NCBI GenBank assembly: GCA_034433695.1
Contig: DAOUAK010000038.1
Coordinates: 2,758 to 66,757 of the forward strand
Direction of reading: 5' to 3'
Origin: Chloroflexia bacterium
GTDB taxonomy: Bacteria; Chloroflexota; Chloroflexia; DTKN01
Length of the DNA stretch: 64,000 bases
This document shows positions 25-41,980 of this stretch, piece by piece (the first letter of the stretch is position 1; every line of letters begins with the position of its first letter). The position numbers and the translations under genes were made by a program. The notes below the pieces were generated by a model. It was given only the letters and a program-made list of their open reading frames with translations. It searched no databases and was not told the origin of the DNA.

Positions 25-1443
25 ATGAAGACGCTCAAGATGCTTCCCCTGGTCCTGATCGGCGCGATGCTGATCGGTGTCCTGGCCGGGTGCGGCCCAC
101 AACCTACCGCCCCGGCTACGGAAAAACCGGCGGCGACCCCCGTCCCCACGGCGGCCCCTACGGCGGTTCCCACCCCGAAGCCCGTGACGCTCCGCTATGC
201 CAACTGGAACCTGGGCACGGAAGAGGAAAACAACGTCCAGCGCCAGCTGGTCAAGAAGTACATGGAACTCAACCCTCACGTGACCATCGAGTTCGTGGAC
301 ATGTCAGGCGAGGGCACGTGGGACGACAAACTGACCGCCCTAGCGGCCAAAGGCGCACTGCCCGACGTCTTCATGGCCGACAAGACTCCCCTCTACGTCA
401 AGAACGGCTGGTTGGCCGACCTGACCGAACTGGTGAGCGAGGACCCGGATTGGCAGAAGGTGCCGGAGGTACTGCGCAACGCCGTGACCTACAACGGCAA
501 GGTACTGGCTCTGCCGGCGGCGCAGTTTGTCATGGGCTATTTCGTCAATCTGGACCTCTTTGAAGCCAACAACCTGGGAGCGCCCACCTATGGCACCCCC
601 GTGGACGAGTTCTTCGCCGTGGTCACCAAGTTGACCGACGTCCAGAAAGGTCGCCTGGGCATGGACGAGATGGAATTCATCCTGGGCTGGTATCCCAGCA
701 CCCAGGACCCGACCCTGAAGTGGTTCAGTTTCGACGGCCAACACATGCACTATAACTCCGAAGCCTTCAAGGCCGGCGTGGCCAAGGCCGGCGAGATGCG
801 GCCGCATACCTGGCAGGGCCTCACCGACGAGCAGAAAGCCAACTTCAAGTCGCAGGGGCCGTGGGAACTCTTCCTGAATCAGGAATGCGGCGTCCGCTGG
901 GACGGCGGCTGGGCGGTGCCGGCCATCGCCCAGCAGGCCACCTTCAACTGGGACTTCCTGGGCATCCCCGGCGGCAACCAGGCCCTGGTGGGCGACTTTA
1001 TCGTCGTCGCCAAGACGACCGCCAACCTGGAAGAGGCCTTCAAGTTCGCCAAATGGATGACCTTCTCGCGCGAAGGTTACCTGGCCGAGGCCGAGATCGC
1101 CCGCGCGGCCGGCCAGGTGCCCACCCGCATGCCGGTTTTCGTGGACGCCGAAACCATCGACCTGTACCTGTCCTTCGTCGGCGATAAACCCGGCCTGCGC
1201 CAGGCCTTCGAGAACCTGGACAACAGCCTGCTCGAATCGCTGGCCAAGATCGTGCCCGGGTACGTCGCCGCCCGCTGGGAAGGTAAACCCGGCATCGACA
1301 TCGGCGAGGACAAGGATGTGAACATGTGGTACATGTTCAACTTCGCCAACGAGGGCAGGTACAAGTACGAGGATTATGCAGCCCGGTTGGAAGAGTTCGC
1401 CAACCGCCTGCTCGATGAGGCCCGCGCCGAACTCAAGCCTTAA
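25..1443 (+). CDS. ABC transporter substrate-binding lipoprotein (family 1, carbohydrate-type)
   Basis: ATG at 25 preceded by GGAGG. Signal peptide with lipobox LAGCG. Pro/Thr-rich linker, then ~420-aa SBP-like fold. First gene of the sugar ABC operon. Confidence 0.85.
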
Positions 1444-1518
1444 AAGCGACCCGGAGGGGGCTGCACCAGCGCGTGCAGCCCCCTCTTCCCCAAGTGGTCA
1501 GAGACGCGCTCGCATGAG

Positions 1519-4413
1519 ATGAGCGGGAAAATCAGGGCGGTCCGTGTTTTGAGTCTCCTTGGGGCAATCGTCCCGCTCCTGAATCTCCTGGGGGCCGGCC
1601 AGGTGACTTCTGGGGCAGCCCGGCCGCCCGCCACCCTCGCCTTCGCAGCCCAGCCCGGCGGGCAACAGGGCCGGACCATCGAGATCCGTGCCGATACCTT
1701 CGGTCTGCCGCTCGCCAACGACGACCTGGCCCACCAGTATAACAAGCCCAGCGTCCGATTGACCCGAGGGGACAGCGCCCGCTTTTCGGTAACGATCGAG
1801 ACGGCGGGGGAATATACCATCGCCTTCGATGCCGCCGTGCCGGAGGAGGTGCTCGTCACTGCCCCGGAGGGTCAACTCCTTCTGGATGGTGCCCTGCCGG
1901 TCGAAGATGCCCGCCGCATCGTCTTCCCGCTTTTTTACCGCAGCCCGGCGGAAGAGTTTCCGCTCGACCGCTACGGCAACGAGACCCTTATCCCCGCAGT
2001 GCGCCTGGCGCGTTGGACCCAGGTCTATCTACGAGATGTCAACCTGAGCCGCAAGTACCCGCTGACCATCCACCTTTCCCAGGGCGAGCACGACTTTGAG
2101 TTTGTCCTGACCCGCGAGATCCTCCTTCTGGGCAGCATCTACCTCCGACCATTTTCGCCGGACATGCCGTATAGCGACTACCTTGCCCGGAAACCTGCCC
2201 AGGACTCTGTCGGGGTGCTGATCGAAATCGAGGCAGAAAGACCAAGTTACAAGAACGATATCTCCATCCGCCCTCTCTATGACCGCAGCCTGGAAGTCAC
2301 GCCCTACGACACCTATCGCCTGCTCCTGAACACCATCGGCGGGGAAAGCTGGCAACGCAGCGGCAGCGCACTCTACTACGAGGTAAAAGTACCGCAGGAC
2401 GGGATGTATCTTATCACCCTGCGGGTCCTCCAAAATACACGCAGTAACTTTGTCGTTTTCCGCCGCCTCACCATCAACGGAACCGTGCCCTTTGATGAGG
2501 CTAACGAAATACCGTTCGGCTATCACCCGGGATGGGAAAACGTCACCCTGCCCTATCGGGTGTACCTGCAACGGGGGACGAACGTCCTGGGGCTGGAGGT
2601 TACCACTTCCCCCTACGATGCCGCCATCAGGAACATCCGTCGCTCCATTGGGGACATCACGGCCCTCTCGCTGGAGGTCAAGCGCCTGACCGGCAACCAG
2701 GTGGACCGCTATCGGGAATGGGAAATTGCCGAATACATCCCCAACATCGAGGAGCGGCTGGATGACATCGCCGCCAGGCTCGCCGCCGACAAGGCCGCGC
2801 TACAGACCTTGAGCGGCGGGCTGAACTCGCAGGAGATCATGAACTACCAGATGGCCCTCGACAACATTCTCGTACTCCGGAACGACCCCAACAAAATCCC
2901 GGTGCGCATGAACCGCCTCTCCGAGGGGCCACAATCGGCGGCCCAACTGCTGGGCAATGTGCTCAGTGCCCTGCAGAAACAGCCGCTTATGCTGGACAAA
3001 ATCTACCTGCACTCGCCCGATGTCACGCCGCCAGAACCGCAGGTCTCGGCCTGGGAATCGGCGAGCGAGGGCATCAAGCGCTTCTTCCACTCCTTCACAC
3101 GCACCCCCTATCAATCCATCGGCGCGAGCGAGGGCGAAATCGAAGTCTGGGTCAACCGTCCCCGGCAGTATGTGGCCCTGATGCAGCAAATGGCCGATCG
3201 GTCTTTTACTCCACGGACGGGCATCGGCGTTGTATTCTCGCTCATGCCCAACGAATCGAAACTGGCCCTGGCCATCGCCGCCGACATCGAACCGGATGTG
3301 GTCCTGGGCCTCAGCACGAACATCCCCTATGAACTCGCCCTGCGCAACGCCCTGTACGATCTGCGCTCCTTTGAGGATTTCGATTCCTTCATCCGCATCT
3401 ATGCCCCCGGTTCGCTCCTGGGCTACATCATCAACGATTCGGTCTATGCCATCCCGGAGACGCAGGATTTCTGGGTGACGTTTTACCGCAAGGATATCCT
3501 GGATTCCCTTGGGCTGTCGGTCCCGCACACCTGGGATGAAGTCATCGCCATCTTGCCCGAACTGCAGCGTTATGGGATGAACTTTTACACCCCACTTTCA
3601 ACCGGCAGCGGCCTCAAGGGTTATCTCATCACGGCTCCTTATATCTGGAATTTCGGCGGCGCGTTATACAGTCCCGACGGCCTGAAGACCGGACTCGGCA
3701 GCGACGAATCCATCACCGCCATCAAATTCATGGCCGAACAATTCACCGTCTACGGGATGCCGCTCACCGCCGTCAGTTTTTACGACAGTTTCCGCAACGG
3801 CGAACTGCCGGTGGGCATCTCCAACGTGGAGACGTACATCAAACTGCGCACTGCCGCGCCCGAAATCGAAGGGCTGTGGGGAATCGACCTCTACCCGGCC
3901 ACCGTCCTGCCGGACGGGAGACAAAACCGTTACGCCACCGGCTCGGCGCAGACCTGCGTCATCCTCGCCGATACCGAAAGGCCGCAGGAAGCATGGGAAT
4001 TCCTGAAGTGGTGGATGTCCACCGAGACCCAGGTGGAGTACGAACGGCAACTCCTGATGAACTATGGCCCGGAATACCTGTGGTACACGGCCAACCTGGA
4101 AGCCTTCCGTTATCTGCCGATTCCCGAGGAGCACAAAGAGGTCATCCTCAAACAGTGGGAATGGCTTCAGGAGCCGGTCAAACTTCCCGGCACGTACATG
4201 CAGGAGCGCGAGTTAAGCAATGCCTGGAACCGGATCGTCTTCGACGGAGTCAACCCACGCGTAGCGATCGACAACGCCATTCTGACGATCAACCGTGAAA
4301 TGGCGCGCAAGATGGAGGAACTCGGTTACACCCGCAACGGCGTGCCGGTACGCGAGATTCGGGTGCCCACCATCGAGACCGTCCGCCGGTGGATGGAGGC
4401 AGCAGAGAAATGA
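1519..4413 (+). CDS. Large secreted protein: ~530-aa unknown N-terminal region fused to a C-terminal family-1 sugar solute-binding-like domain
   Basis: 964-aa ORF with N-terminal hydrophobic signal. The C-terminal ~430 aa resemble ABC sugar SBPs. Directly followed by an overlapping permease gene. Confidence 0.6.
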
Positions 4414-5327
4414 CTACCCTCAGAACCGCCTTCCGCCGATGGCTGGCCCGGGAAGGAAGCGCTTACGCCTTCATCTTCCCCTACGCCATCCTGTTCATGG
4501 TCTTTATCGTCATTCCGGTGGCGATAGCCGTCGTCCTCTCGTTCACTTATTTCGATACCATCCAATTCCCGACCTTCATCGGCCTGCGCAACTATATCAC
4601 TCTGCTGACCCAGGATGACATTTTCATGAAACATGTCCTGCCCAACACCATCGAGTTTGCGGTCATTGTTGGGCCGGGCGGCTACATACTGGCCTTTTTG
4701 CTGGCCTGGATGCTGGCGCAACTGCCGCGCCTCCCCCGTACCATCCTGGCGTTGATCCTGTATTCGCCCTCGATGACCTCGGCGGTGACGATGGCCGTCG
4801 TCTGGCAAACCCTTTTCAGCGGCGACCAGAACGGCTATCTGAACAGTTTCCTGCTGAACCTGGGCATCATCCAGGAACCGGTGCAGTGGCTGCAATCGCC
4901 TCAGTACCTGATGCCGATTATGATCGTCGTCACGCTGTGGAGCAGCATGGGGGTGGGCTTCCTGGCCATGCTGGCCGGCATTCTGGACATCAACCCCGAA
5001 CTTTATGAGGCCGCCGCCGTCGATGGTCTGAGCAACCGCTGGCAGCAGATCTTTTACATCACCATCCCCTCGATGAAGCCGCAGATGCTCTTTGGGGCGG
5101 TGATGGCCATCGTCGGCACGTTCCAGGCCGGCTCGATCGGCGTGGCTCTTTCGGGGTCCAACCCCACCCCGCAATATGCCGGCCAGCTCATCGTCAACCA
5201 CATCGAGGACTATGGTTTCCTGCGCTACGAGATGGGCTACGCGGCAGCCGTCTCGGTGGTCCTGCTCCTGATGGTGCTGTTCTTCACCCGCCTGGCCAAC
5301 CGGCTGTTCGGCAGCGAGGAACGATAG
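4410..5327 (+). CDS. Carbohydrate ABC transporter permease (MalF/UgpA-like)
   Basis: ATGA overlap with the upstream stop. Six TM segments and an EAA-like loop. Typical binding-protein-dependent permease. Confidence 0.85.
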
Positions 5328-5350
5328 CGTATACGGCGGTAGGGCTACCC

Positions 5351-6259
5351 ATGAGACTCCGTTTCCTTCAGAAATCGTACAGCCTGCGCAACAGCGGCAT
5401 CAATCCATCCGGCTTCCACCCCAGCCAGATTCAGTTCTACATCATCCTGGCTCCGGTGGTGGCCTTTATGCTCCTGCCGATCATCTTTATTATCTCCAAC
5501 GCCTTCAAGCCGCCCGAGGAACTCTTCGCCTACCCGCCGCGCTTCTTCGTCGTCAACCCAACGCTGAAGAACTTTACCGACCTTTTTACCCTGATGACCG
5601 TCTCCGAGGTGCCGGTCAGCCGCTACCTGTTCAACAGCATTGTCCTCACGGCCATCTCCATAGGGGCTTCCATTGCCATCTCCAGCACGGCGGCCTATGC
5701 CCTCTCCAAGAAGCGCTTCAGGCTCAAGCAGACGCTCTTTGCCGTCAACACCGTGGCGCTGATGTTCGTGCCCGTTGCCGTTACCATCCCGCGCTTCCTC
5801 ATCATCGCCCGTCTGGGACTGATCGATACCTTCTGGGTACACATCCTCCCTGCACTGGCCATGCCGGTCGGACTCTTCCTGCTCAAGCAATTTATCGACA
5901 CCATCCCGGACGAGGTCATCGAGGCAGCCCAGATCGACGGTGCCTCCGACCTGCAGATCTACTGGCGCATCGTCCTGCCGCTGGTCAGACCGGCCCTGGC
6001 CACCATCGCCATCCTGACCTTCCAGGCCACCTGGAACAATGCCGATACCTCGGCCATGTATATCAACATCGAAAACCTCAAGACCTTCGCCTACTATCTC
6101 AGCACACTTTCGACGACAACCGCCGGGGCGAACGTGGTGGCCGGCCAGGGTATGGCCGCAGCGGCAGCACTGATCATGTTCGTGCCTAACCTGATCATGT
6201 TCCTCCTCCTGCAAAGTCAGGTCATGAGCACGATGTCGCATTCGGGGCTAAAGGGATGA
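5351..6259 (+). CDS. Carbohydrate ABC transporter permease (MalG/UgpE-like)
   Basis: Multi-TM protein with the conserved loop [16 protein letters not shown], which is EAA-motif-like. Confidence 0.85.
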
Positions 6260-8271
6260 AACGTCTGCCGCTCTTCCTCGTTCTGGTGCTCTTATTGCTC
6301 CTCCTGATTCCGGGCGTGCCCGCGCAGGCCCTGACCCCTTATACGACCTGGGCGCTGGGGCCGGGCGGCCGACTCTACCTGACACAGGACGCCTACGTTC
6401 CCGTTTCGGAGGTGCCCCTGCCCTTGTCCGGTGCGGAGGATATGTTCATCACCGCAGAAGGAGACCTTTACATCGCCGATACGGGCAACGGCCGCATCCT
6501 GCGCCTGGACAGCAACTGGCAGATCGTGGCAACCTACGGCGAAGGGCTGCTCCGAAAGCCGAACGGCCTCTTTGTGGACCCCGAGGGAACGATGTACATC
6601 GCCGACGCCGGAAACAACTCCATCGTCATCCTCGACCATGACGGCACACTGGCCACGAGTTTTGGCCGGCCGAACGAGGCGCTCTTTGGCCGCAGGAACG
6701 AGTTCCTGCCTCGCAAAATCGCCGTAGACACGCGCCAGAACCTCTATATCGTCAGCGAGGGTTCGACCGATGGCCTGGTGATGATGACCCGAGACGGACG
6801 CTTCATCGGCTACTTTGGCGCGAACCCGGCCACGATGTCCTTGAAGATGCTCTTGCAGCGCCTGTTCCTGACGAGGGAGCAACTGGCGCAATTCATCAAG
6901 AACGAGGCGGCCTCGCCCTCCAATGTAGCCATCGACAGCGAAGGGATGATCCTTACCGTAACCTCGGGCACGGCCCGCGAGCGCAGCATCCGCCGTTTCA
7001 CCGTCGCCGGCCACAATATCTTCCCCGAAATCTACGGCTCGACGACCTTTCGCGACCTTCATGCCAGTCCGAACGGCCTGGTCACAGCGGTAGATGCCGA
7101 GGGACGAATCTACGAGTACGATCGGAAAGGAATGCTCCTCTTTGTCTTCGGGGCCCAGGACAAAGGGGAGCAACGCCTGGGACTGCTCCGCAACCCCACC
7201 GCCATCGAACGCTATCAGGACTGCATCTATGTGCTGGACAAGGACAAGAACGCCATCGTCGTCTACCGGGAAACGAGGTTTGCCCGTCTGGTCCATGACG
7301 GTGTGCGGCTGTATGTGGAGGGCTTTTACAGCGAGGCACGACCTTACTTCGAGGAGGTGCTGCGCTATAACGGCTTATTCATCATGGCCTACCAGGCCAT
7401 CGCCGATGCGTACTTCAAGGAGGGCGACTATATCCGCGCCCTGACCTATTATCGCTATGCCGAAGACCGCCGGGGCTATTCCGAAGCCTTCTGGGAACTC
7501 CGCAACGTCGTCCTGCAACAATACCTGGCAACCGGCCTCCTCGGGCTACTCGGCCTCCTCGTTGCCCAGGGGGCCCTCAAACGCCTCGACCGCCGCTACG
7601 CCTGCTTCGCTCCGGTACGGCGTGGACTGGCCTGGCTGTGCCGCCGCAAACTCGTGGACGACTTTCTTTTCCTCTTTCGCTTCATCAAACACCCCGCCGA
7701 TAGTTTCTATTACATCAAGGCCAAACAGCGCGGCAGCCTGGCGTTTGCCCTCCTGATCTATCTGTGGGTGGTCATCGTGCGGGTGCTGACCCCTTACCTG
7801 ACCGGATTTATCTTCAATCCCTACGCCAACCCGGGAGAAATCCGCGCCGAAAACGAGGTCGTCTACACCCTCCTCTTCCTTCTGCTCTGGAATGCGGCGA
7901 ACTACCTGGTCTCGACCATCAGTGAGGGTGAGGGCCGCGTCCGGGACGTCGTCATCGGCAGCGCCTACGCGCTCTCCCCTTACGCCATTTTTGCGCTGCC
8001 AATCGCCCTCCTCTCCAACGTCCTGAGCGCCAACGAGGCCTTTTTTTACACCTTTTCCATGAACCTGGTATGGGCCTGGACCGGGCTGATGCTTTTCCTG
8101 ATGGCCAAGGAAATCCATAACTACTCCTTCGGCGAAACGGTCCGTAACGTCCTGCTGACCCTCTTCACGATGGCTATGGCGCTGCTGGCCGGCTATATCC
8201 TGTATGTGCTGGCCTCCCAGTTCTATGACTTTATCTCGGCCATCTGGCGGGAGGCACAGTTACGTGGTTAA
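6256..8271 (+). CDS. Membrane protein with N-terminal signal, NHL repeats, TPR-like region and C-terminal Yip1-like multi-TM domain
   Basis: NHL-like repeats [14 protein letters not shown] and [17 protein letters not shown]-like segment ([22 protein letters not shown]). C-terminal ~250 aa with 5-6 hydrophobic helices. ATGA overlap with the upstream permease. Confidence 0.6.
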
Positions 8272-8272
8272 G

Positions 8273-11286: not shown

Positions 11287-11312
11287 TCGGAATCGGCCTG
11301 CAAGGTGTACCG

Positions 11313-12314
11313 ATGGACCTGCATCCCATAAGGAAAACGAAATTTGGGGATCGGAGGGGGCCTCGCCTCGAGGAACTCCTCTCTCGCCTCGCCCCCCTTG
11401 GGGACAGGATTCGCGGCTTGCTATTCGGCACGCGCTCCGGTTACGGCCTGATTTTCACCGTCCTCGCCTACGCCTTGCTCATCATTATCGGCTTTGTGTA
11501 CCTCTACCCGCTCCTCTTTATGCTGGTTACCAGCCTGAAAAGTCCCACCGACCTGCTCAACCCAATGGCGCAATGGATACCCAACGAGTTGTACCTGGGC
11601 AACTATGCCAAAGCCTACCGCGTCCTGAATTACCCTTCCACCTTGCTCTCCTCCATTCTGGTCAGCGTTGTACCTTCGGTGATTCAGACCATCGTTTGCT
11701 CGGTCGTGGGCTACGGCCTGGCCCGCTACCGGTTCCCCGGCAAGCACCTGCTTTTCCTGTTGATCCTGGCCACCTTTCTCATCCCGCCCCAGAACACCGT
11801 CATCCCGCAGATGCTCACTTACCGGCAGTTCGGTCTGCTGGGGAGCATCTGGGCGATGATCCTGCCGGCCCTGTGCGGACAGGGCTTTCGTAGCGCTATC
11901 TTCATCCTCATCTTTTACCTGTCTTTCCTTACTCTGCCCAAAGCGCTCGAAGAGGCGGCCCGTCTGGACGGAGCATCCGAGGCCCGAATTTTCCTCCAGA
12001 TCGCCGTTCCGAACGTCATTCCGGCTTATATCGTCTCCCTGATCTTTTCCATCGTCTGGTACTGGAACGAGACCTACCTGACCGTCATCTTCCTGGAGGG
12101 CGGCATCCAAACCCTGCCGATGCAACTTTCCAAGTTCGCCCAGGCCTATGAGAACCTCTATCCGGCCGGCATGGTCAACATCTTCGACCGTCTGAACGAG
12201 GCGGTCAAACTCAGCGGCACCTTCCTCAACATCTTGCCCCTTCTGCTGATGTATTTTGTCCTGCAAAGGTGGTTCGTCGAATCGATCGAAAGGACGGGTA
12301 TCACCGGTGAATAG
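11313..12314 (+). CDS. Carbohydrate ABC transporter permease (UgpE-like)
   Basis: Multi-TM permease with an AARLDGASEARIFLQIAVP loop. Confidence 0.85.
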   Translation: MDLHPIRKTKFGDRRGPRLEELLSRLAPLGDRIRGLLFGTRSGYGLIFTVLAYALLIIIGFVYLYPLLFMLVTSLKSPTDLLNPMAQWIPNELYLGNYAKAYRVLNYPSTLLSSILVSVVPSVIQTIVCSVVGYGLARYRFPGKHLLFLLILATFLIPPQNTVIPQMLTYRQFGLLGSIWAMILPALCGQGFRSAIFILIFYLSFLTLPKALEEAARLDGASEARIFLQIAVPNVIPAYIVSLIFSIVWYWNETYLTVIFLEGGIQTLPMQLSKFAQAYENLYPAGMVNIFDRLNEAVKLSGTFLNILPLLLMYFVLQRWFVESIERTGITGE

Positions 12315-13668
12315 ACGGCTTGCTCTCCTCCTGGCGCTCTTTCTCATGTCTTCCTGTGGCCCGCTGGCTCCGTCTCCGCAGGCGGGAGGTGTCAGGCCGG
12401 CTGGCGTGCCCTCTCAGACGCTTGTTCCCGCACCTACCCCAACGTGGACGCCTGCTCCTACGCAAACCCCCGTCCTCGTTGCCATCGAAGAGGTGATCGA
12501 GGGGGAAATGTGCGGAGCCTTTGACTTCTTCTGGGAACAGGCCAACACCGACCCTGAAAGCCCCGGCTACGGCCTTATCCGAGACCGTTATCCCGGTTCG
12601 GAGGGCATCGCCAGCATCGCCTCGGTCGGTTTCGGCCTCACTGCCTATGTGATTGGGGCGGAAAAGGGCTATGTCACGCGCGAACAGGCCTGCGAACGCG
12701 TGGCCGGCACGCTGGACACCCTCCTGGCCCTCGAGCGCGAACACGGCTTCTACTTCCACTTCCTCGATATGCGAACCGGCAGGCGTGCCTGGCAAAGTGA
12801 GGTCTCCAGCATCGACACCGCCATCCTGTTGATGGGTGTCTTGAGCGCCGGGGAGTACTGCCGCGAGAGCCAGGCCAAGGCCGAAGAAATATACACCGGC
12901 GTGGACTGGCCCTGGTTCGTGGACCCCGATCGGAACATGTTCTACATGGCTTACCGTCCGGAAAAGGGCTTTGAGGGTTATTGGGACTTTTACGCCGAGC
13001 AACTGATGCTCTACGTCCTGGCTGCCGGCTCGCCTACCCATCCGGTTGACCCGGTGGTGTACTATACCTTTACCCGCCACTCGGCCAAATACGGGGAGGG
13101 GCAGCCCTTTATTCACTCCTGGTTCGGCTCGATCTTTACCTACCAGTACAGCCATGCCTGGATCGACTTCCGTGGTCTCACCGACCGTCGGGGCGTGAAC
13201 TGGTTCGACAACTCGGTCGAGGCCTCCCTGGCGCATTACCGCTTCGCCGTGGCGATGGACGAAAAGTACCTGACGCTGGGTCCGCAGGCCTGGGGGTTGA
13301 CCGCCTGCGACAGCCCCCACGGGTACGAGGGACGTTACGGTGCACCCCCCTCCGGCTACGACTACAGACAGCACCTGGTGGATGATACGATTGCCCCCGC
13401 CGGAGCCATCGGCTCCATCCTCTTCCTGCCGGAAGAGGCCAAACAGGCCATGGCCTACTATTACTCCTTGGAAAAACTCCGGGGGCCGTACGGCTTTCAG
13501 GATGCCTTTAACCTGACCGAGAACTGGTTCTCCAGCGATGTCATCGGCATCGACAAGGGCATCTCCCTCTTGATGCTGGCGAATTATCAAAACGACCTGG
13601 TCTACGCCGTTACGATGAAGAATGTGCACATCCAGAATGGACTGGAAAGGCTGGGAATCACGAGATGA
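12307..13668 (+). CDS. Glucoamylase-like (alpha/alpha)6 glycoside hydrolase lipoprotein, GH144/DUF3131-like (putative endo-beta-1,2-glucanase-type)
   Basis: GTG start overlapping the permease stop. Lipoprotein signal LLLALFLMSSCG. Motif FFWEQANTDPESPGYGLIRDRYPG...SVGFGLTAY is shared with the paralog at 14654. Confidence 0.5.
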   Translation: MNRRLALLLALFLMSSCGPLAPSPQAGGVRPAGVPSQTLVPAPTPTWTPAPTQTPVLVAIEEVIEGEMCGAFDFFWEQANTDPESPGYGLIRDRYPGSEGIASIASVGFGLTAYVIGAEKGYVTREQACERVAGTLDTLLALEREHGFYFHFLDMRTGRRAWQSEVSSIDTAILLMGVLSAGEYCRESQAKAEEIYTGVDWPWFVDPDRNMFYMAYRPEKGFEGYWDFYAEQLMLYVLAAGSPTHPVDPVVYYTFTRHSAKYGEGQPFIHSWFGSIFTYQYSHAWIDFRGLTDRRGVNWFDNSVEASLAHYRFAVAMDEKYLTLGPQAWGLTACDSPHGYEGRYGAPPSGYDYRQHLVDDTIAPAGAIGSILFLPEEAKQAMAYYYSLEKLRGPYGFQDAFNLTENWFSSDVIGIDKGISLLMLANYQNDLVYAVTMKNVHIQNGLERLGITR

Positions 13669-14657
13669 TCACCATCAAAGACGTTGCCCAACGTGCCGGG
13701 GTCAGCATCACCACCGTTTCTTATGTGCTTAACGGCAAGGGGAACATCAGCGAAGCCACACGCCGGGCGGTTCTGGCTGCGGCGGAGGAACTCAACTACC
13801 ATCCTAACGCCCATGCCCGCCACCTGAAGAAGCGGAGAACGCGCACCATCGGTGCCTTTGTCGGCTCTCTGGGTGGCCTGTTCTACGAGGAGATTCTGGA
13901 AGGCGTCCACGCCGCAATCTTGCAAACGGACTATGAACTCATCGTCGTCCCGGAGACACATGCTCCCAGCCGTATTCTCTGCAACCGCCAGGTGGATGCC
14001 GCCATTGTCTTCGACGTCAAGATTCCGGACGATCTGCTGGTCAGCCTGGCCTGGAAACGCTTCCCCATCGTTACCTTCGACCGCTACCTGGAAGCCGAAT
14101 ACGTCTTTCCTCTCCTCGTCGATAACCCTAGCGGTACACGCGAGGTGTTCTACCACCTCTACAACCAGGGAGTCCGGCACTTGGCCTTTGTGGCCGGCGC
14201 TCCCGATTCGTTCGACAATGCCGAGCGCAAGGAAACCTTTCTCGGCGAAGCCGAAAAGCGTGGCCTCAGCGTCCGTTGCTATCAAGGGAACTTTACCGAG
14301 ACCTCCGGCTACCAGATTGCCCGGGAAATTATCGCTTCCCGAGACCTTCCCGAAGCAGTTTTCTGCGCCAACGATCAGATGGCAATCGGCTTCCTGAAGG
14401 CCATGCACGAACACGGCCTGCGCGCCCCCCAGGATATCGCTCTGGTCGGCTTCGACGACATCCCGGTCGCCTGCTACCTGCAACCGCCGCTTTCCACCGT
14501 CCACGTCTCGCGCACGGAATGGGGCCGACAGGCGGTGGTTCGGCTGATCGACTTTCTGGAGCACGATATCTCCTTTCCCCGAGAGCGAATTCCGGTTCGC
14601 TTCGTTGCCCGCGAATCTTCGCTGATCTCACCGCAGTTCCCACGGCCATTGCCATGA
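13665..14657 (+). CDS. LacI-family transcriptional regulator
   Basis: N-terminal HTH MITIKDVAQRAGVSITTVSYVLNG plus a periplasmic-binding-protein-like sugar-binding domain. ATGA overlaps on both sides. Confidence 0.9.
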   Translation: MITIKDVAQRAGVSITTVSYVLNGKGNISEATRRAVLAAAEELNYHPNAHARHLKKRRTRTIGAFVGSLGGLFYEEILEGVHAAILQTDYELIVVPETHAPSRILCNRQVDAAIVFDVKIPDDLLVSLAWKRFPIVTFDRYLEAEYVFPLLVDNPSGTREVFYHLYNQGVRHLAFVAGAPDSFDNAERKETFLGEAEKRGLSVRCYQGNFTETSGYQIAREIIASRDLPEAVFCANDQMAIGFLKAMHEHGLRAPQDIALVGFDDIPVACYLQPPLSTVHVSRTEWGRQAVVRLIDFLEHDISFPRERIPVRFVARESSLISPQFPRPLP

Positions 14658-15946
14658 AAGCAGATACCCTCCTGGCCGAAGAAATTCGGGGGGCGGTCCG
14701 GTTCTTCCTGGAGCATACCAATCTTCACCCGGAAAGCCCCGGCTTTGGCCTGACCGTGGATTCGACCAAGCGGCCGGCCAGGGCTTCCATCGCTTCGACC
14801 GGCTTTGCCCTGACCGCCTGGGTGATCGCGGCCGAACGGGGCCTTATCCCGCAACAAGAGGCCCGCCGAATCGTCCACGGCACGCTCCACACCCTGTTCC
14901 ACCATGCCGACCAGCACCGCGGCTTCTTTGCCCACTTTTTGCACATCGACAGCGCCGGCCGCTTCGGCAAAAGCGAGTACAGCACCATCGACACCGCCCT
15001 CTGCCTGAACGGCGTCATCACCGCAGCCGCATACTTTCACCACGATGCGACCATCGCCGAACTGGCCGCAGGCATCCTCGATCGCGTGGACTGGGATTTC
15101 ATCGTCTTTGAGCGAGATCGAGAGGCCCTCTTCCGTATGGCCTACAACCCTGACCCGGACGGCGATTACGTCAGCGGGCAACCGGGCTTCATCGGCCAGT
15201 GGGATATGGCCGCCGAGCAGAAGATGATGTACCTCCAGGCCTCCCTGCACCTCGAGGCCGGCCTCGCCCGCCGGCTCTACCGGGGCTTTCGCCGCGACAT
15301 CGGCTACCACGAAGGCCGGCCGATCATCATCAACCCCGGCGGCAGCCTCTTTGCCTACCTGTTCAGCGAGGCCTGGCTGGATACCGCCCGCTACCTCGAT
15401 CCCGACGGCGTGGACTGGTTCGAGAACACCCGCCGCGCGGCCCTGGCCAACCGGGCTTTCTGCATCGAGAACTCGACGTGCTTCCGGACTTATCACGCCC
15501 GCAGTTGGGGATTGAGCGCCGGGGATAGCCCGCACGGCTACGACGTCTTTGGCGCCCCTCCCTGCCTGGGCGAACCCTATCACGATGGAACGGTCTCCAT
15601 CTATGCGGCCGTCGCTTGCCTGCCCTTCCTGCCCGAGGAGATCCTGGAAATGATGACCTACCTCCACCGCCATCAGCCGCGCACCTGGGGCCGGTACGGC
15701 TTCTTCGACGCCTACAACCTGGATGTCTCGCCTCCCTGGTACAGCCGGGCCGTTTATGCCATCGACAAGGGCTGCTCGATGATCATGACCGAAAACTATC
15801 TCAGCGGCCTGGTGTGGAGTGTTTACACAAGCAGTCCTTATATCCGCCAGGCTCTCCATACCCTGGGCTTCACCGAACGGGCCGGCCGGCTCCTATCAGG
15901 GCAAAACTCTGGAACAGCATCTCCCGCAGACGGATCGATTCCCTAG
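14654..15946 (+). CDS. Glucoamylase-like (alpha/alpha)6 glycoside hydrolase, GH144/DUF3131-like paralog (no signal peptide)
   Basis: Motif FFLEHTNLHPESPGFGLTVD...STGFALTAWVIAAERG is paralogous to 12307..13668. ATGA overlap with the lacI stop. The 14276 ORF extension is a frame artefact. Confidence 0.5.
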   Translation: MKADTLLAEEIRGAVRFFLEHTNLHPESPGFGLTVDSTKRPARASIASTGFALTAWVIAAERGLIPQQEARRIVHGTLHTLFHHADQHRGFFAHFLHIDSAGRFGKSEYSTIDTALCLNGVITAAAYFHHDATIAELAAGILDRVDWDFIVFERDREALFRMAYNPDPDGDYVSGQPGFIGQWDMAAEQKMMYLQASLHLEAGLARRLYRGFRRDIGYHEGRPIIINPGGSLFAYLFSEAWLDTARYLDPDGVDWFENTRRAALANRAFCIENSTCFRTYHARSWGLSAGDSPHGYDVFGAPPCLGEPYHDGTVSIYAAVACLPFLPEEILEMMTYLHRHQPRTWGRYGFFDAYNLDVSPPWYSRAVYAIDKGCSMIMTENYLSGLVWSVYTSSPYIRQALHTLGFTERAGRLLSGQNSGTASPADGSIP

Positions 15947-15958
15947 AAGGAGGATGCC

Positions 15959-18265
15959 GTGAACCTGACCTTCCGTAAGGGCCTCTTCTGGCTGGATGAC
16001 CGCCCGCTCATACTCCAGGCCGGCGAATTCCATTACTTCCGCACTCCCCCCGACCGGTGGGAGCATCGCCTCGGCCTGCTCAAAGCGGCCGGCTTCAACG
16101 CCGTTGCCTCCTATATCCCCTGGCGCTGGCACGAGCCTGAGGAGGGGCATTTCGACCTGGACGGCCACAGCCACCCGATGCGCAACCTGGCCGGCTTTCT
16201 CGACCTGGCTGCCGAGATGGGCCTTTTCATCATTGCCCGCCCCGGCCCCTACATCATGGCCGAGACGATCAACGAGGGCATCCCCGATTGGGTCTTTTCC
16301 CACTATCCACAGGTCGCTTTCATCGACCAGCACGGCCGGCCGCAGAACATCGTCAGTTACCTGCACCCCGATTTCCCGACCTGCGCCGCCCGCTGGTTGC
16401 GCGCCGTCTTCGGCGTGCTCGCGCCGCGCCAGGTCACACGCGGTGGGCGTATCGTGCTCGTGCAATTGGATAACGAGATGGGCATGATGCACTGGGTACG
16501 TAACATCCTGGACATCCACCCCGATACCCTGGAGCGTTTCGCGACCTGGCTCCGGCAGACCTACGGCGAACAGTTGGCGGAGCGTTACCCGACGACGAAT
16601 CTGGTTTCCTTCCTGCGCCAGGGCATCACCCAGGCGCGGAGTCCCCATGCCGCCCGCACGGTGGAGGATTACCGCCGCTTCTTCCGTGGCTACCTGCGTG
16701 AGTATGCCGCCTTTCTGCTGAACGAAGCGCAGAAAAACGGCCTGGAAGTGCCGCCGGTGATCAACGTCCACGGCTTTGCGAACGGCGGCAAGACCTTTCC
16801 CATCGGGCTTTCCCAACTGGTCGAGGTGATGGAACTGCCCGGCGTGCTCACCGCCACCGATGTCTATCCCGGCTTCATCGGCGAGGGCAACTATCATGAA
16901 CTGCTGCTGGTCAACGAGATGACGCGCGCCCTCCAGAACCCACAGCAACCGCTCTTTTCCATCGAGTTCCAGGCCGGCGGCAACCAGGACTTTGGCGGGG
17001 CGCAGACTTCCTTCTTCGATCTGCATACCCGTCTGAGCCTCTCCGTGGGGATGCGCGCCATCAACCACTACCTCTTCTTCGATGGGGAGAACGACCCCCT
17101 GCTCAGCCCGGTGCGGCGCCACGATTGGGGACACCCCGTGCGCAAAGACGGCAGCCTGCGCCGCCACTACCACCGCTACCCCCAACTTTCCCAGACTCTG
17201 GCGGCCTATGGGGAGGCCCTTGCCCTCGCCCGCCCGCAGACCGTCACCGCCGTCGGCTTCCGGCTGGACGACTTTTCGACCGAGGTCAACACGCCCGCCA
17301 CCGAAGAGGCCACCCGAATTATCACCCACCAGCGCGAGGTGATCCTCTTCGACTTTATCGCCCGTGGTCTGGCGCTGACCCACCGGCCGTTCCGCGCCCT
17401 GGAACTGGGCCGCGCCGCGCTCGATGTACGGGAAACTCCCACCCTCTGGGTGATGAGCGAGCGGCGCTGTGAGGCCGCGATCCAGCGGAAGTTGGTCGAT
17501 TACGTCCGCTCCGGTGGCCGCCTGGCCCTCATCGGCCGGCTGTGTCTGGAGGATGGAGACGGCCGGCCCTGTACATTGTTGCGCGACGCCCTCGGCCTGA
17601 CGGCCGTCCAGAGCGACCCGCCCTTTACCCCCAGCCACATCGACGCCTTTGGCTACACCGACATACCCGTCTCGTTTGTGGAAACCTACCGCGGCGTGTT
17701 CGACCGGGTCATCGCCACCCGGCATGGCGAGACGGTGGGCTTTGTCAGGGCGCTGGGCAAGGGGCAAGTCCTTGTCCTTGGGGCAGCGCTCGAGGCCAAT
17801 ACCCTGGAAGACCTCGACCTCCTGCACCGGATGGCGCTGGAAATAGGCTGCCCCCCCGCCTTCACCCTGAGCGAGTGGGCCGACGTGCGCCTGAGCCGGG
17901 GCGAAAAGGGCGGTTTTCTTTTCATCAACAACTACCAGGATGACCCGATCGAGACCTGCATCGCCTGGCAGGGACAACCCCTCTTTGGCGGGAACGCCAT
18001 CTATCTCCCGGCCCGCCAGGGCGCCATCCTGCCGCTGGACTGGCAGGTAGCCGAAGGGGTTACCCTGCACTATGTCACAGCGGAGGTACGCCGTGTGGAA
18101 CGCCGGCCGGAGTCGCTCATTCTGGGACTGGCCCAGGACGCTTTCGCGGCCGAGTTGAGCCTGAGTGGCTGGGAATGTCCAGAGGCGCAACGCGTATCGG
18201 AGTCTGTCCCTCCCCGTCTGTTCCTGCGGGGGAGGGATGGGCAAATCGTTCTGTACAGACAATGA
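15959..18265 (+). CDS. Glycoside hydrolase family 35 beta-galactosidase-like enzyme
   Basis: GH35 motifs YIPWRWHEPEEGHFDL, RPGPYIMAE, GIPDW and VLVQLDNEMG (compare human GLB1). GTG start with GAAGGAGG RBS. Confidence 0.8.
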   Translation: MNLTFRKGLFWLDDRPLILQAGEFHYFRTPPDRWEHRLGLLKAAGFNAVASYIPWRWHEPEEGHFDLDGHSHPMRNLAGFLDLAAEMGLFIIARPGPYIMAETINEGIPDWVFSHYPQVAFIDQHGRPQNIVSYLHPDFPTCAARWLRAVFGVLAPRQVTRGGRIVLVQLDNEMGMMHWVRNILDIHPDTLERFATWLRQTYGEQLAERYPTTNLVSFLRQGITQARSPHAARTVEDYRRFFRGYLREYAAFLLNEAQKNGLEVPPVINVHGFANGGKTFPIGLSQLVEVMELPGVLTATDVYPGFIGEGNYHELLLVNEMTRALQNPQQPLFSIEFQAGGNQDFGGAQTSFFDLHTRLSLSVGMRAINHYLFFDGENDPLLSPVRRHDWGHPVRKDGSLRRHYHRYPQLSQTLAAYGEALALARPQTVTAVGFRLDDFSTEVNTPATEEATRIITHQREVILFDFIARGLALTHRPFRALELGRAALDVRETPTLWVMSERRCEAAIQRKLVDYVRSGGRLALIGRLCLEDGDGRPCTLLRDALGLTAVQSDPPFTPSHIDAFGYTDIPVSFVETYRGVFDRVIATRHGETVGFVRALGKGQVLVLGAALEANTLEDLDLLHRMALEIGCPPAFTLSEWADVRLSRGEKGGFLFINNYQDDPIETCIAWQGQPLFGGNAIYLPARQGAILPLDWQVAEGVTLHYVTAEVRRVERRPESLILGLAQDAFAAELSLSGWECPEAQRVSESVPPRLFLRGRDGQIVLYRQ

Positions 18266-18311
18266 AACGGTGACTCTCTAGCAATGGCATAGGCCCATCA
18301 AGGAGCACACA

Positions 18312-20420
18312 ATGGACGACACCGCGTCTTTCGTCGAGAACCTTCTGGCCCAAATGACCCTCGAAGAAAAGATCGGGCAACTCCACCAGATCCACCTTGA
18401 CGACGATTTCGACCCGGACATGCTACGCCAGGGGCACGTCAGTTCGGTCCTCAACTTGCCTGACACGCTGGCCGGCTACGACCGGAGCGATTCCGGCAGA
18501 GCGGAAGCCGTCAACTACCTGCAGCGGCTGGCGCTGGAAGCCCCCCTCAAGATCCCGCTGCTCGTTGGACGGGATGTGATCCACGGTTTTCGCACCGTCT
18601 TTCCCATCCCGCTGGCCCAGGCCGCCGCGTTCGACCCCGAACTGGCCCGACAGGCCGCCGAGGTCGCCGCCCGCGAGGCCACCGCTTGCGGCATCAAGTG
18701 GACCTTTGCCCCCATGCTCGATATCGCCCGCGACCCGCGCTGGGGACGCATCGCCGAGGGTAACGGTGAAGACCCGGTGCTGGGGGCACGCATGGCCGAG
18801 GCCGTCGTCCGCGGCCTGCAGGGCGAGGATATGTCCCGTCCCGAGAAAATGGTCGCCTGCGCCAAGCACTTTGCCGGGTACGGGGCTGCCGAGGGTGGGC
18901 GGGACTATGAAAACGGCGAAATCTCCGACCCTACCTTGCGGGATATCTACTTGCCTCCCTTTGAGAGCGCCGTGCGCGCCGGGGTCGGGACGGTGATGTC
19001 CGCTTTTATTGACCTGAATGGGATGCCCGCCACCGCGAGTCGCTACCTTCTGACCGACATCCTGCGCGGCGAGTGGGGCTTCGACGGCTTTGTCGTCTCC
19101 GACTGGGAAGCGATCCGCGAACTCGTTGAGCATGGGGTGGCGGAGGACCGGGCCCATGCCGGCCGCCTGGCCCTCCATGCCGGCGTGGATATGGACATGG
19201 TCAGCGGCATCTACCTGGAAACGCTGGCCGAGGGCGTCCGTAACGGGACTGTTCCGATCGAAGAAGTGGACGAAGCCCTGCGCCGCATCCTGCGCATCAA
19301 AAAGCGCGCCGGCCTGTTTGAAAGCCCCTTCACCGATCCCGCCCGAGCCGCCCGGGATTTGCTCACTCCAGATGCGCGCCTGCTTGCCCGGAGGTTCGCC
19401 CGCCAGAGCATGGTACTGCTCAAGAACGAAGGGGGACTGCTCCCGCTGCAGGGCTTTCGCCGCATCCTGGCGGCCGGCCCCTTTGTGCACGCCCAAAGCG
19501 AGTTGTTCGGCACCTGGACGTTCGACGGGCGTGCCGAGGATGTCACCCCGGTCGATCAGGCCCTGCGCCAGACTGCCCCGAAAGATGTGGAACTGTGGTT
19601 CGCCGACTCGGCGGACCTGGCGCTGCGTATGGCATCAGCAGTGGACGCCGTGATCCTGCTGATGGGCGAGCACCCGGTGCGCTCCGGCGAGAACTCCAGC
19701 GTCAGCGATCTGGGTTTGCCACCCGGTCAGGCCGAGTTCATCGCCGCCATCGCCGCCTTGGGCAAGCCGGTGGTGCTGGTCGTCTTTGCCGGGCGCCCAC
19801 TGGCCATGACCCGGCAGGTGGAGCAGGTGCAGGCCGTGCTCTATGCCTGGCATCCGGGGATAGAAGGGGGCATGGCCCTGGGAGAAATCCTCTTCGGCCT
19901 GGAGGCCCCCGGCGGGCGGCTACCGGTGACTTTTCCCCGGGCTACGGGTCAGGTTCCCATCTATTACAATCACAAGAACTCCGGCCGGCCGATCGGTTCA
20001 AACGGGTACTTTACCCGCTACAGCGACCTGCCGTCCTCGCCGCTCTTTCCCTTCGGTTACGGCCTGACCTACACCACCTTTGCGTATGCCAACCTGCGCC
20101 TGAGCAGCGATGTGCTGCGCGGCCATGTGGAGATCAGCGTCGAGGTCACCAACACGGGCCCGCGCCCCGGCCGTGAGGTGGTCCAGTTGTACGTGCGCGA
20201 TCTGGTCGGTTCGCTTACCCGCCCGGTGCGCGAACTCAAGGATTTCCAGAGCGTCGAACTGGACCCCGGCAAAACCACCCGCGTCACCTTTTCCCTGAGC
20301 GAAGACCAACTGGCTTTCACCGGCGCCAGCGGCCGGCGGGGCGTCGAACCCGGAACCTTCCACATCTGGGTCGCTCCTCACAGCCAGGGTGGGTTGCAGG
20401 GAACGATAACGATACCTTAA
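18312..20420 (+). CDS. Glycoside hydrolase family 3 beta-glucosidase (BglX-like) with C-terminal FnIII-like domain
   Basis: GH3 N-terminal signature GRDVIHGFRTVFPIPLAQAAAFD and catalytic region FVVSDWEAI. AAGGAG RBS. Confidence 0.85.
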   Translation: MDDTASFVENLLAQMTLEEKIGQLHQIHLDDDFDPDMLRQGHVSSVLNLPDTLAGYDRSDSGRAEAVNYLQRLALEAPLKIPLLVGRDVIHGFRTVFPIPLAQAAAFDPELARQAAEVAAREATACGIKWTFAPMLDIARDPRWGRIAEGNGEDPVLGARMAEAVVRGLQGEDMSRPEKMVACAKHFAGYGAAEGGRDYENGEISDPTLRDIYLPPFESAVRAGVGTVMSAFIDLNGMPATASRYLLTDILRGEWGFDGFVVSDWEAIRELVEHGVAEDRAHAGRLALHAGVDMDMVSGIYLETLAEGVRNGTVPIEEVDEALRRILRIKKRAGLFESPFTDPARAARDLLTPDARLLARRFARQSMVLLKNEGGLLPLQGFRRILAAGPFVHAQSELFGTWTFDGRAEDVTPVDQALRQTAPKDVELWFADSADLALRMASAVDAVILLMGEHPVRSGENSSVSDLGLPPGQAEFIAAIAALGKPVVLVVFAGRPLAMTRQVEQVQAVLYAWHPGIEGGMALGEILFGLEAPGGRLPVTFPRATGQVPIYYNHKNSGRPIGSNGYFTRYSDLPSSPLFPFGYGLTYTTFAYANLRLSSDVLRGHVEISVEVTNTGPRPGREVVQLYVRDLVGSLTRPVRELKDFQSVELDPGKTTRVTFSLSEDQLAFTGASGRRGVEPGTFHIWVAPHSQGGLQGTITIP

Positions 20421-20621: not shown

Positions 20622-20657
20622 GGGGGGCGGATGTCGGCCGGCCGACACCCGCCCCCC
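20622..20657. terminator. Near-perfect GC-rich palindromic hairpin between convergent genes (bidirectional terminator candidate)
   Basis: GGGGGGCGGATGTCGGCC|GGCCGACACCCGCCCCCC is a ~18-bp stem with one mismatch. Flanked by GTTTCG on the + side and TTTT on the - side. Confidence 0.5.
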
Positions 20658-22083: not shown

Positions 22084-22095
22084 CGTCTGTTCCGT

Positions 22096-22098
22096 TCA
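22096..22098 (-). other. In-frame TGA at the predicted thioester-cysteine codon of the A2M gene (candidate Sec recoding site, inactivating mutation or sequencing error)
   Basis: Minus-strand reading is ...GAT TAC CCC TTT GGC TGA ACG GAA CAG ACG ATG..., i.e. DYPFG-stop-TEQTM. Canonical A2M thioester motif is YP(Y/F)G-C-x-E-Q. Confidence 0.7.
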
Positions 22099-27182: not shown

Positions 27183-27198
27183 TTCGCGCTCCTGGGGA

Positions 27199-32227: not shown

Positions 32228-32237
32228 GGAGTTCCCG

Positions 32238-32942: not shown

Positions 32943-32997
32943 CGTTGCGGCCCTGTTCGCACCGGGTATTCTGCAACACGAAACACGGATCACGAAC

Positions 32998-40235: not shown

Positions 40236-40249
40236 TTCGGAGGAGGAAG

Positions 40250-41968: not shown

Positions 41969-41980
41969 GGGAGGAAACCA

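Follow-up and report, generated by a model that had tools for sequence, protein, structure and literature searches.

Which glycan is served by a gene cluster that encodes two separate sets of sugar-importer genes, and how are the two sets related? This question is raised by 13 genes, g1 to g13, all on the + strand, that occupy positions 25-20420 of a 64,000-nt stretch of contig DAOUAK010000038.1 from a Chloroflexia bacterium, the whole of which we refer to as the window. A sequence-only reading of this DNA had described the genes as a glycan-utilisation locus with duplicated ATP-binding cassette (ABC) import modules, whose content resembles that of loci for β-1,2-glucan and its sophoro-oligosaccharides (Sop(n)). 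The coordinates and orientation of the genes are borne out, and every domain call agrees with the Pfam assignments. The proposed substrate is supported by homology, the locus encoding two glycoside hydrolase (GH) family 144 enzymes, an IaSGT-like GH35 enzyme and a BglX-type GH3 enzyme, with a GH94 enzyme encoded upstream in relatives. We consider that the locus is probably the body, truncated by the window edge, of an operon of 14 or more genes for scavenging β-1,2-glucan and its sophoro-oligosaccharides. The importer genes lead to a seven-gene cassette, g2-g8, that is also found in Firmicutes.

The degradative enzymes

Two of the hydrolases, g9 (12307..13668) and g11 (14654..15946, both with refined start codons), match PF10091 (E-values 2e-64 and 5e-65, family cut-off 27 bits), which carries the Pfam name 'Glycoamylase' but is the GH144 endo-β-1,2-glucanase family. 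The best solved matches of g9 are XcSGL (PDB 8xul, 1.2e-67) and CpSGL (5gzh, 7e-44), and g11, which is 40% identical to g9, matches 4gl3, XcSGL (5e-34) and CpSGL (4e-28). In CpSGL, E211 is the general acid and E142 a conserved acidic candidate base, with E211, F268 and Y330 being clan-defining (PMC12102758). A MAFFT alignment with fragments of CpSGL and XcSGL places E, D, F and Y of g9, and likewise of g11, at the positions of CpSGL E211, E142, F268 and Y330, respectively, the D being shared with XcSGL. The g9 protein has a lipoprotein signal sequence (LLLALFLMSSC) and a Pro/Thr-rich linker, and is a candidate extracellular endo-β-1,2-glucanase, here called GH144a. The g11 protein, GH144b, has no signal peptide and is a putative cytoplasmic paralog in which the catalytic signature is kept. 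NCBIfam offers no name for either GH144 protein. A search of the literature for GH144 in Chloroflex* returned only a mention of a reagent enzyme and unrelated metagenomics papers. The GH144 enzyme Chy400_4164 of Chloroflexus aurantiacus is reported to give Sop3-7.

The GH35 protein g12 (15959..18265; Glyco_hydro_35 and GLMA_2nd domains) is predicted to be cytoplasmic. Its best solved match is the β-1,2-glucosyltransferase IaSGT (7vkw, 6e-73), followed by archaeal glucosaminidases (GlmA, 1e-57) and by galactosidases at 1e-28 or weaker. All seven of the subsite -1 and catalytic residues of IaSGT (Y52, E102, N175, E176, N275, E343 and Y378) are kept in the HMMER alignment. IaSGT L100 is Met in g12, a replacement that is common among IaSGT homologs (PMC8861115). 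These features point to an IaSGT-type GH35 protein and a putative β-1,2-glucosyltransferase. The last gene, g13 (18312..20420), encodes a likewise cytoplasmic protein with GH3 N-terminal, GH3 C-terminal and Fn3-like domains. Its matches in the PDB are 3u48 (1e-179), BT_3567 (5xxl, 2.9e-176) and Lin1840 (4zoa, 2.3e-144), of which BT_3567 and Lin1840 both come from known β-1,2-glucan clusters. It scores just below the cut-off of the NCBIfam BglX model (641 against 666 bits) and appears to be a BglX-type GH3 protein and a putative β-glucosidase.

These assignments bear on whether the locus is instead a generic β-glucoside or β-galactan locus, acting on laminarin, galactan or chito-oligosaccharides, in which g12 would be a β-galactosidase or glucosaminidase and the PF10091 proteins true glucoamylases. 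The Pfam names 'Putative glucoamylase' and 'Glyco_hydro_35' would suit such a locus, as would a sub-threshold NCBIfam match to exo-β-D-glucosaminidase (196 bits against a cut-off of 1500) and the promiscuity of GH3 enzymes. However, four of the eight solved PF10091 relatives (XcSGL, CpSGL, BDI_3064 and PgSGL3) have been characterised on β-1,2-glucan or its oligosaccharides, the other four being uncharacterised entries named 'putative glucoamylase' or 'uncharacterized protein'. In addition, g12 is nearer to IaSGT than to GlmA or the galactosidases and keeps the glucose-recognising residues, and the GH94 protein of the relatives resembles the C-terminal domain of glucan synthases. We therefore regard a generic locus as very improbable. 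The shared substrate logic that the sequence-only reading had attributed to the hydrolases holds up in the profile searches, in which Pfam and the solved relatives together give two GH144 proteins, an IaSGT-like GH35 protein and a BglX-type GH3 protein with a common β-1,2-glucan logic. The degradative half of the locus thus appears to be a further SGL/SOGP-type cluster, of a kind that is already known.

Organization and conservation of the locus

The genes are tightly packed, as had been noted from the sequence, with overlaps of 4-8 nt at 6 of the 12 junctions and a widest gap of 75 nt when the refined starts are used. Taken in order from g1 to g13, the junctions measure +75, -4, +23, -4, +1, -4, +26, -8, -4, -4, +12 and +46 nt. 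The fifth of the overlaps joins g9 to g10 (13665..14657), which encodes a LacI-family repressor (LacI helix-turn-helix PF00356, 5.8e-22; Peripla_BP_3 PF13377, 4.8e-34), and the ATG of g11 in turn overlaps the g10 stop codon. A ribosome-binding site, GGAGGA, lies 6 nt upstream of the g1 start. Between the convergent g13 and α-2-macroglobulin genes there is a perfect, loopless, GC-rich inverted repeat of 18 nt (20622..20657) that is likely to mark the end of the transcription unit. Scans of the DNA for promoters and terminators gave no signal above shuffled background and are uninformative on operon structure. Lipoboxes are present in g1 and g9 and N-terminal hydrophobic segments in g2, g5 and g6, with no N-terminal signal in g11-g13.

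The closest database proteins come from metagenome-assembled genomes of Anaerolineae and other Chloroflexota, with g2 being 100% identical to one NCBI protein and g6 97% identical to another. A scan with an alignment of DUF5696, the domain of g6, taking one genome per species, gave 80 loci. All belong to Chloroflexota, and they include Anaerolineales, Caldilineales, Ardenticatenaceae, Promineifilaceae, Thermoflexus, Aggregatilineales and Roseilinea. We compared the 13 window proteins with these loci by tblastn, counting a gene only where enough flank was available. All but one of the 80 loci (79) have the genes in colinear order, with identities of 56-89%, an arrangement that is far beyond chance. 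Each of g1-g8 is present in all or all but one of the loci in which it could be counted (56/56 to 73/73). GH144a is found in 58 of 64 loci, LacI in 60 of 62 with its position unchanged, and GH35 in 49 of 53. GH144b is the most dispensable part (43/58), and the GH3 gene adjoins the locus only in closer relatives.

The g1 ortholog of Anaerolinea thermophila is directly preceded, in strain UNI-1 as well as in another assembly of the species, by a gene for a GH94 protein of 796-815 residues, at 1-1533 of locus L083 and 5842-8289 of locus L087. The orthologous operon begins with this GH94 gene, the genes upstream of it being unrelated. About 60 of the 80 loci encode the C-terminal part of the same protein, 75-86% identical, at the corresponding place. 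The best plasmid-borne matches to the relatives' GH94 protein are to the C-terminal GH94 domain of cyclic β-1,2-glucan synthases (~38% identity over 96% of the length, tblastn); NCBIfam gave no name for the GH94 fragment. The position of this gene implies a conserved operon of at least 14 genes, with the window starting just after the first of them. The window edge would then truncate the locus, and GH94 would lie just 5' of base 1. The sequence-only reading had suggested looking for a GH94 1,2-β-oligoglucan phosphorylase elsewhere in the genome; a GH94 gene is found immediately upstream in the orthologous loci, but not within the window itself. The fixation of the locus as an operon of ~14 genes across the Anaerolineae appears to be new relative to the literature that we found.

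Such strong conservation raises the alternative that the locus serves the turnover or remodelling of the cell's own β-1,2-glucan, whether in the envelope or as an osmoprotectant, with GH94 and GH35 acting in synthesis or editing. A locus that is near-universal in several Anaerolineae orders, with permeases about 80% identical and almost invariable colinearity, is more typical of housekeeping; in addition, the GH35 protein is assigned as a transferase, and the reactions catalysed by GH94 enzymes can run in either direction. Against this, the permeases belong to the class of importers that depend on binding proteins, and lipoprotein solute-binding proteins (SBPs) accompany them, a LacI repressor is encoded inside the operon, and GH144a is predicted to be an extracellular lipoprotein. 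There is no GT84-type glucan synthase in the locus or its flanks, and the counterparts of the transport genes in Firmicutes, described below, accompany plainly catabolic GH43, GH113 and GH42 genes. We judge endogenous glucan turnover to be improbable and favour scavenging of external β-1,2-glucan.

A seven-gene transport cassette common to Chloroflexota and Firmicutes

The genes g2-g8 have a fixed order of giant SBP, two permeases, NHL-TPR-Yip1 protein, DUF5696 protein and two further permeases. The 964-residue g2 protein (1519..4413) is a membrane-anchored SBP in which only residues ~563-841 are assigned by Pfam to the SBP domain. Its parts run from an N-terminal transmembrane helix through two β-sandwiches resembling carbohydrate-binding modules of families CBM6/35 and a helical stalk to the C-terminal SBP domain. 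The first permease pair is formed by the MalF-like permease A1 (g3, 4410..5327), which has six hydrophobic segments, and the MalG-like permease A2 (g4, 5351..6259); the second is formed by permeases B1 (g7, 10408..11286) and B2 (g8, 11313..12314). All four have the BPD_transp_1 domain. Between the pairs lie g5 (6256..8271), a protein of 671 residues with a signal peptide, an NHL β-propeller, tetratricopeptide repeats (TPR_2/TPR_16) and a multi-pass Yip1 membrane domain, its hydrophobic segments being at 4-22 and within 418-650, and g6 (8273..10411), a protein of 712 residues, secreted or anchored, that matches DUF5696 (PF18952) at 3.8e-166.

The two importers are not copies of one another. The SBPs g1 and g2 show no significant similarity (E 1.3), and g3/g4 and g7/g8 are 23-41% identical over short stretches only. 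These values, together with separate positional orthologs in Firmicutes, rule out a recent duplication of an ABC module, and the description of the import modules as duplicated has to be given up. A tblastn search of plasmids with DUF5696 identified homologs in two Firmicutes, Paenibacillus cellulosilyticus and Butyrivibrio fibrisolvens, whose loci have the same cassette order, with a giant SBP of ~980 residues, followed by ordinary SBPs. Three more loci from Lachnospiraceae and Paenibacillus have the same arrangement, and positional orthologs of all seven of g2-g8 are present in each of the five Firmicutes loci. Identity to the Firmicutes orthologs is 28-32% over ~880 residues for the giant SBP, 41-58% for permease A1, 41-50% for A2, 27-32% for the NHL-Yip1 protein, 26-28% for DUF5696, 34-37% for permease B1 and 31-35% for B2. 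By this comparison, the two translocons are best described as ancient, divergent partners within a fixed seven-gene cassette that is common to Firmicutes.

NHL and Yip1 are fused in the Anaerolineae and in P. cellulosilyticus, whereas in four of the five Firmicutes loci (Lachnospiraceae and P. alkalitolerans) they are encoded by separate, slightly overlapping genes. In the manner of a Rosetta-stone argument, the occurrence of the two as a fusion in some loci and as adjacent genes in others supports a functional link between them.

What varies between the phyla is the surroundings of the cassette. No ortholog of g1, of the GH144 proteins or of the IaSGT-type GH35 protein is found in the five Firmicutes loci, and in four of them the flanks encode different hydrolases (GH43, GH113, GH2, GH35/GH42). 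The flanking sets comprise GH43 with a histidine kinase and response regulator; LacI, GH113 and GH2; and GH43, GH35, LacI and GH42. In P. cellulosilyticus there is no adjacent GH gene, and a ugpC (MsmX-type) ATPase gene lies directly upstream. A small SBP of its own is always next to the Firmicutes cassette. This distribution suggests that g2-g8 form a constant core that is not specific to β-1,2-glucan, with the flanking small SBP and hydrolases setting the substrate. Our literature searches found no description of Yip1, NHL, SBP and permeases in combination, and only irrelevant papers on YIP1 family proteins with glycoside hydrolases. An uncharacterised cassette spanning two phyla would thus be new relative to the literature found.

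The independence of the cassette from β-1,2-glucan enzymes in Firmicutes is also what would be expected if two unrelated systems had been juxtaposed here, with g2-g8 importing some other, possibly α-linked, glycan that is processed by the DUF5696 protein, and action on β-1,2-glucan confined to g9-g13 and to g1, the latter perhaps served by an unlinked permease. The Firmicutes cassettes occur without GH144, GH94 or IaSGT-type GH35, and the nearest structural relatives of DUF5696 are retaining α-glycosidases. However, the cassette lies between g1 and the GH144 genes with overlaps of 4-8 nt at its junctions, the locus has a single regulator, and practically all of the Chloroflexota loci examined retain the complete order GH94-g1-cassette-GH144-LacI. 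The locus offers g1 no further permease pair. Because Firmicutes cassettes always adjoin a small SBP of their own, g1 is best read as the variable SBP of the cassette. Juxtaposition is accordingly an unlikely account, although slightly less so than endogenous glucan turnover, and we prefer a single β-1,2-glucan system that includes the cassette.

The absence of an ABC ATPase from the locus, remarked on in the sequence-only reading, is upheld by Pfam, which finds none at 25-20420. An MsmX-type ATPase was not found anywhere in the window, in which the ATPases outside the locus are a nitrate/sulfonate-type protein with an AAA_assoc_C domain (41981-43291) and two exporter half-transporters (55179-58999). 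There are sugar importers of the CUT1 type that share an orphan MsmX/UgpC ATPase, as in the Bacillus subtilis MsmX paradigm. Two sets of genes in the locus have the composition of CUT1 importers, that is an SBP and two BPD_transp_1 permeases with the ATPase encoded elsewhere. As a separate observation, the region 39134-43291 (+) encodes an importer of its own, comprising a 944-residue fused double permease with two BPD_transp_1 domains followed by the ABC ATPase with C-terminal AAA_assoc_C, which is not of the MsmX type.

The base composition of the region that includes the cassette differs from its surroundings. Between positions 2000 and 16000 the GC content is 0.59-0.62, compared with 0.64-0.69 elsewhere in the window, and GC skew on the coding strand is persistently negative (-0.07 to -0.16). 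This may reflect the composition of membrane proteins or a distinct evolutionary origin.

The solute-binding proteins

The small SBP g1 (25..1443) is a lipoprotein of 472 residues with the lipobox LAGC that matches SBP_bac_1 (1.6e-23) and SBP_bac_8 in Pfam. Its residues 25-471 align by HMMER to PDB chain 22hh at 4.8e-212, and in this alignment the two sequences look roughly three-quarters identical. This chain belongs to a group of five recent entries, 22hh-22hl, named 'Extracellular solute-binding protein family 1', and shares 75% of its residues with the A. thermophila SBP and no more than 79% with that of any of the loci compared. Ligand complexes of a g1-like SBP have probably already been solved as these entries; no paper was found for them, and a literature search on a glucooligosaccharide-binding protein of Anaerolinea returned nothing relevant. 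By comparison with the Firmicutes loci, g1 is probably the variable, substrate-defining binder. The SBP domain of g2 gives a weak match to the Listeria SBP Lin1841 (3.8e-11); this domain is poorly modelled and we draw no conclusions about its binding site.

DUF5696, a distant relative of GH129

The g6 protein had been described from the sequence as a hypothetical secreted protein. Its N-terminal hydrophobic segment agrees with the second part of this description, and the protein has a DUF5696 domain with a predicted GH129-like fold. The AlphaFold2 (AF2) model (pTM 0.74) is composed of an N-terminal β-sandwich, a (β/α)8 barrel and a C-terminal β-sandwich. It is superposable on the GH129 enzymes NagBb and ZgGH129, and a Foldseek search with it finds GH129 (1e-24) and GH101 (1e-15), then GH36, GH97 and GH31. 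A profile built independently of the model from Chloroflexota and Firmicutes DUF5696 sequences matches GH129 chains over partial stretches at 5.6e-4 to 0.025, whereas a search of PDB sequences with the single g6 sequence found no chain. Pfam assigns the protein only to PF18952 DUF5696, so that it is not a GH129 member at the sequence level, and NCBIfam has no name for DUF5696. On the strength of the model and the profile matches, DUF5696 is best treated as a distant relative of GH129 and GH101 but a distinct family. Sequence identity to GH129 (NagBb, an α-N-acetylgalactosaminidase, and ZgGH129, a 3,6-anhydro-D-galactosidase) and GH101 is 14-16%, and both substrate and genomic context differ, the DUF5696 gene lying between the two pairs of ABC permease genes. 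The enzymes with GH129, GH101 and related folds are α-glycosidases.

Among 15 DUF5696 sequences from Chloroflexota and Firmicutes, the only invariant acidic residues are D187 (in a PDGxG motif), D213, E253 and D514. Residues D441, D505 and D548 are conserved in Chloroflexota and are not invariant in Firmicutes. For this reason, and owing to the low quality of the model over residues 171-300, an attempt to assign a catalytic pair failed. DUF5696 is a large family of 6,710 clusters at 50% identity (E <= 1e-3), and no paper mentioning DUF5696 was found in our literature search.

A model for β-1,2-glucan scavenging

We propose that soluble linear or cyclic β-1,2-glucan, such as that released by Proteobacteria, would bind to the CBM6/35-like modules of g2 on the cell surface and be cut to Sop(n) by the lipoprotein GH144a. 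Capture of the Sop(n) by g1 and the g2 SBP domain would be followed by import through the two separate ABC translocons g3/g4 and g7/g8, energised by an MsmX/UgpC-type ATPase encoded elsewhere. The NHL-TPR-Yip1 protein g5 may form a membrane scaffold, and DUF5696, in all versions of the cassette, may serve both translocons as an enzyme at the surface or as a subunit that handles glycans. In the cytoplasm GH144b would shorten long chains, GH94 would release glucose-1-phosphate by phosphorolysis, the GH35 protein would reshuffle short Sop(n) and the GH3 protein would hydrolyse sophorose to glucose, with LacI de-repressing the operon when Sop(n) are present.

Several observations are difficult to reconcile with this scheme or reduce its force. 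Overlapping junctions are the one sign that g1-g13 would be co-transcribed. The GH94 gene is outside the window and is known here from relatives, its specificity being suggested only by its best tblastn matches. In g12 the residue equivalent to IaSGT R349 is Asn, so that the accessory pair L100/R349, involved in O4/O6 discrimination, is not retained. Moreover, g1 has no match to Lin1841 at E <= 1e-5 and is thus not a Lin1841-type Sop(n) binder. For DUF5696, the resemblance to a group of α-glycosidases does not readily suit a β-glucan, only D514 of the invariant acidic residues lies within the predicted barrel, and the most conserved segment of g6, residues 171-300, has pLDDT < 50. Both AF2 models are modest in quality (pLDDT 66.6 for g6 and 57.9 for g2).

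A broader proposal, which we put forward tentatively as plausible but short of probable, is that g2-g8 constitute an ancient multi-subunit glycan-uptake machine of monoderm bacteria (Chloroflexota and Bacillota) in which two different ABC translocons are coupled to a CBM-fused giant SBP, an NHL-Yip1 scaffold and a GH129-like DUF5696 ecto-enzyme that would be a candidate new GH family. Such a machine would be re-targeted to other soluble polysaccharides by swapping the small SBP and hydrolases, and would be a functional counterpart of the Sus system of Bacteroidota. In the Anaerolineae the core would be dedicated to β-1,2-glucan and fixed class-wide.

Relation to known systems

The closest parallel to the enzyme set is the SGL cluster of Ignavibacterium album (IALB_1177-1187), which contains two GH144 homologs, the GH35 enzyme IaSGT, a GH94 SOGP-domain homolog and an ABC SBP, with an extracellular location predicted for one GH144 protein and an intracellular one for the others (Kobayashi et al. 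2022, PMC8861115). The combination of two GH144 proteins, an IaSGT-like GH35 protein, GH94 (from the relatives) and ABC uptake is thus reproduced here, and IALB_1177 is likewise said to resemble the C-terminal GH94 domain of cyclic β-1,2-glucan synthases (PMC8861115). However, I. album is a diderm for which a TonB-dependent transporter has been proposed and which has a Lin1841-type SBP (PMC8861115). The I. album cluster has no DUF5696, NHL-Yip1 protein, giant CBM-fused SBP or second permease pair. The locus described here also differs in having a GH3 gene appended and a LacI gene embedded; for I. album the source reports no β-glucosidase homolog in its Discussion and lists a putative GH3 β-glucosidase in its Introduction (PMC8861115).

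The SOGP cluster of Listeria innocua (GH94 Lin1839, GH3 Lin1840 and SBP Lin1841) is alike in its monoderm ABC import of Sop(n), phosphorolysis and GH3 enzyme, but it has only one SBP and one permease pair and is not described as having either GH144 or GH35 (PMC8861115). From the SGL cluster of Bacteroides thetaiotaomicron, the GH3 enzyme BT_3567 matches g13.

On the transport side, the locus resembles CUT1/MsmX-type importers in that an SBP and two BPD_transp_1 permeases are encoded while an ATPase is missing from the operon, and the P. cellulosilyticus cassette adjoins ugpC. It departs from them in that two heterologous translocons are hard-wired with Yip1, an NHL propeller, a GH129-like protein and a CBM-fused SBP of ~960 residues. 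By functional analogy only, the locus is comparable to the Sus-like loci of Bacteroidota and to 'Gram-positive polysaccharide utilisation loci', in which surface binding, endo-enzyme, importer, regulator and intracellular exo-enzymes are similarly encoded together and the enzymes can be exchanged around an unchanging transport core. Unlike Sus-like loci, it has no SusC or SusD, uses ABC transport, and includes DUF5696 and NHL-Yip1 in its core.

Other features of the window

Downstream of the locus, at 20683-26145 (-), a bacterial α-2-macroglobulin is encoded by two adjacent open reading frames (ORFs) ~12 nt apart, one of 1349 residues (Big_5, MG2, MG3, bait region and A2M) and one of 466 residues (TED and bMG10). 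A frameshift, a pseudogene or an assembly error might account for the split, as might a natural division of the protein. The region 26241-28158 (-) encodes an unusual fusion of a hexapeptide-repeat acyltransferase to an FeS_assembly_P (DUF59-like) domain, and adjoins a PALP (cysteine-synthase-like) gene. At 44223-46586 (-) lies the gene for a protein of 787 residues with an AAA/SpoIIIAA-like ATPase, a phosphotyrosine-phosphatase-like domain and R3H. AT skew is strongly negative (about -0.30) at 40000-42000 and at 30167-32227. The latter interval holds a 686-residue ORF that has no Pfam match and stands beside a cluster of GT2, GT2 and GT4 glycosyltransferase genes (32196-34937); its product may be a membrane protein, as yet uncharacterised, that belongs to a locus for polysaccharide synthesis.

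Implications

DUF5696 is a candidate new enzyme family that can now be placed in a defined substrate context, and the existence of a cultivable host, A. thermophila UNI-1, makes its function directly testable. If the parts of the cassette do act together, they would represent a new way of organising ABC-mediated polysaccharide uptake. β-1,2-Glucans are made by many Proteobacteria, and few systems for their degradation are known. The class-wide presence of the operon suggests that Anaerolineae, abundant filaments of sludge, sediment and hot springs, routinely feed on the glucans of other bacteria. If the broader proposal of a dedicated, class-wide uptake machine is true, bacterial periplasmic glucans would be a staple substrate for these necromass feeders.

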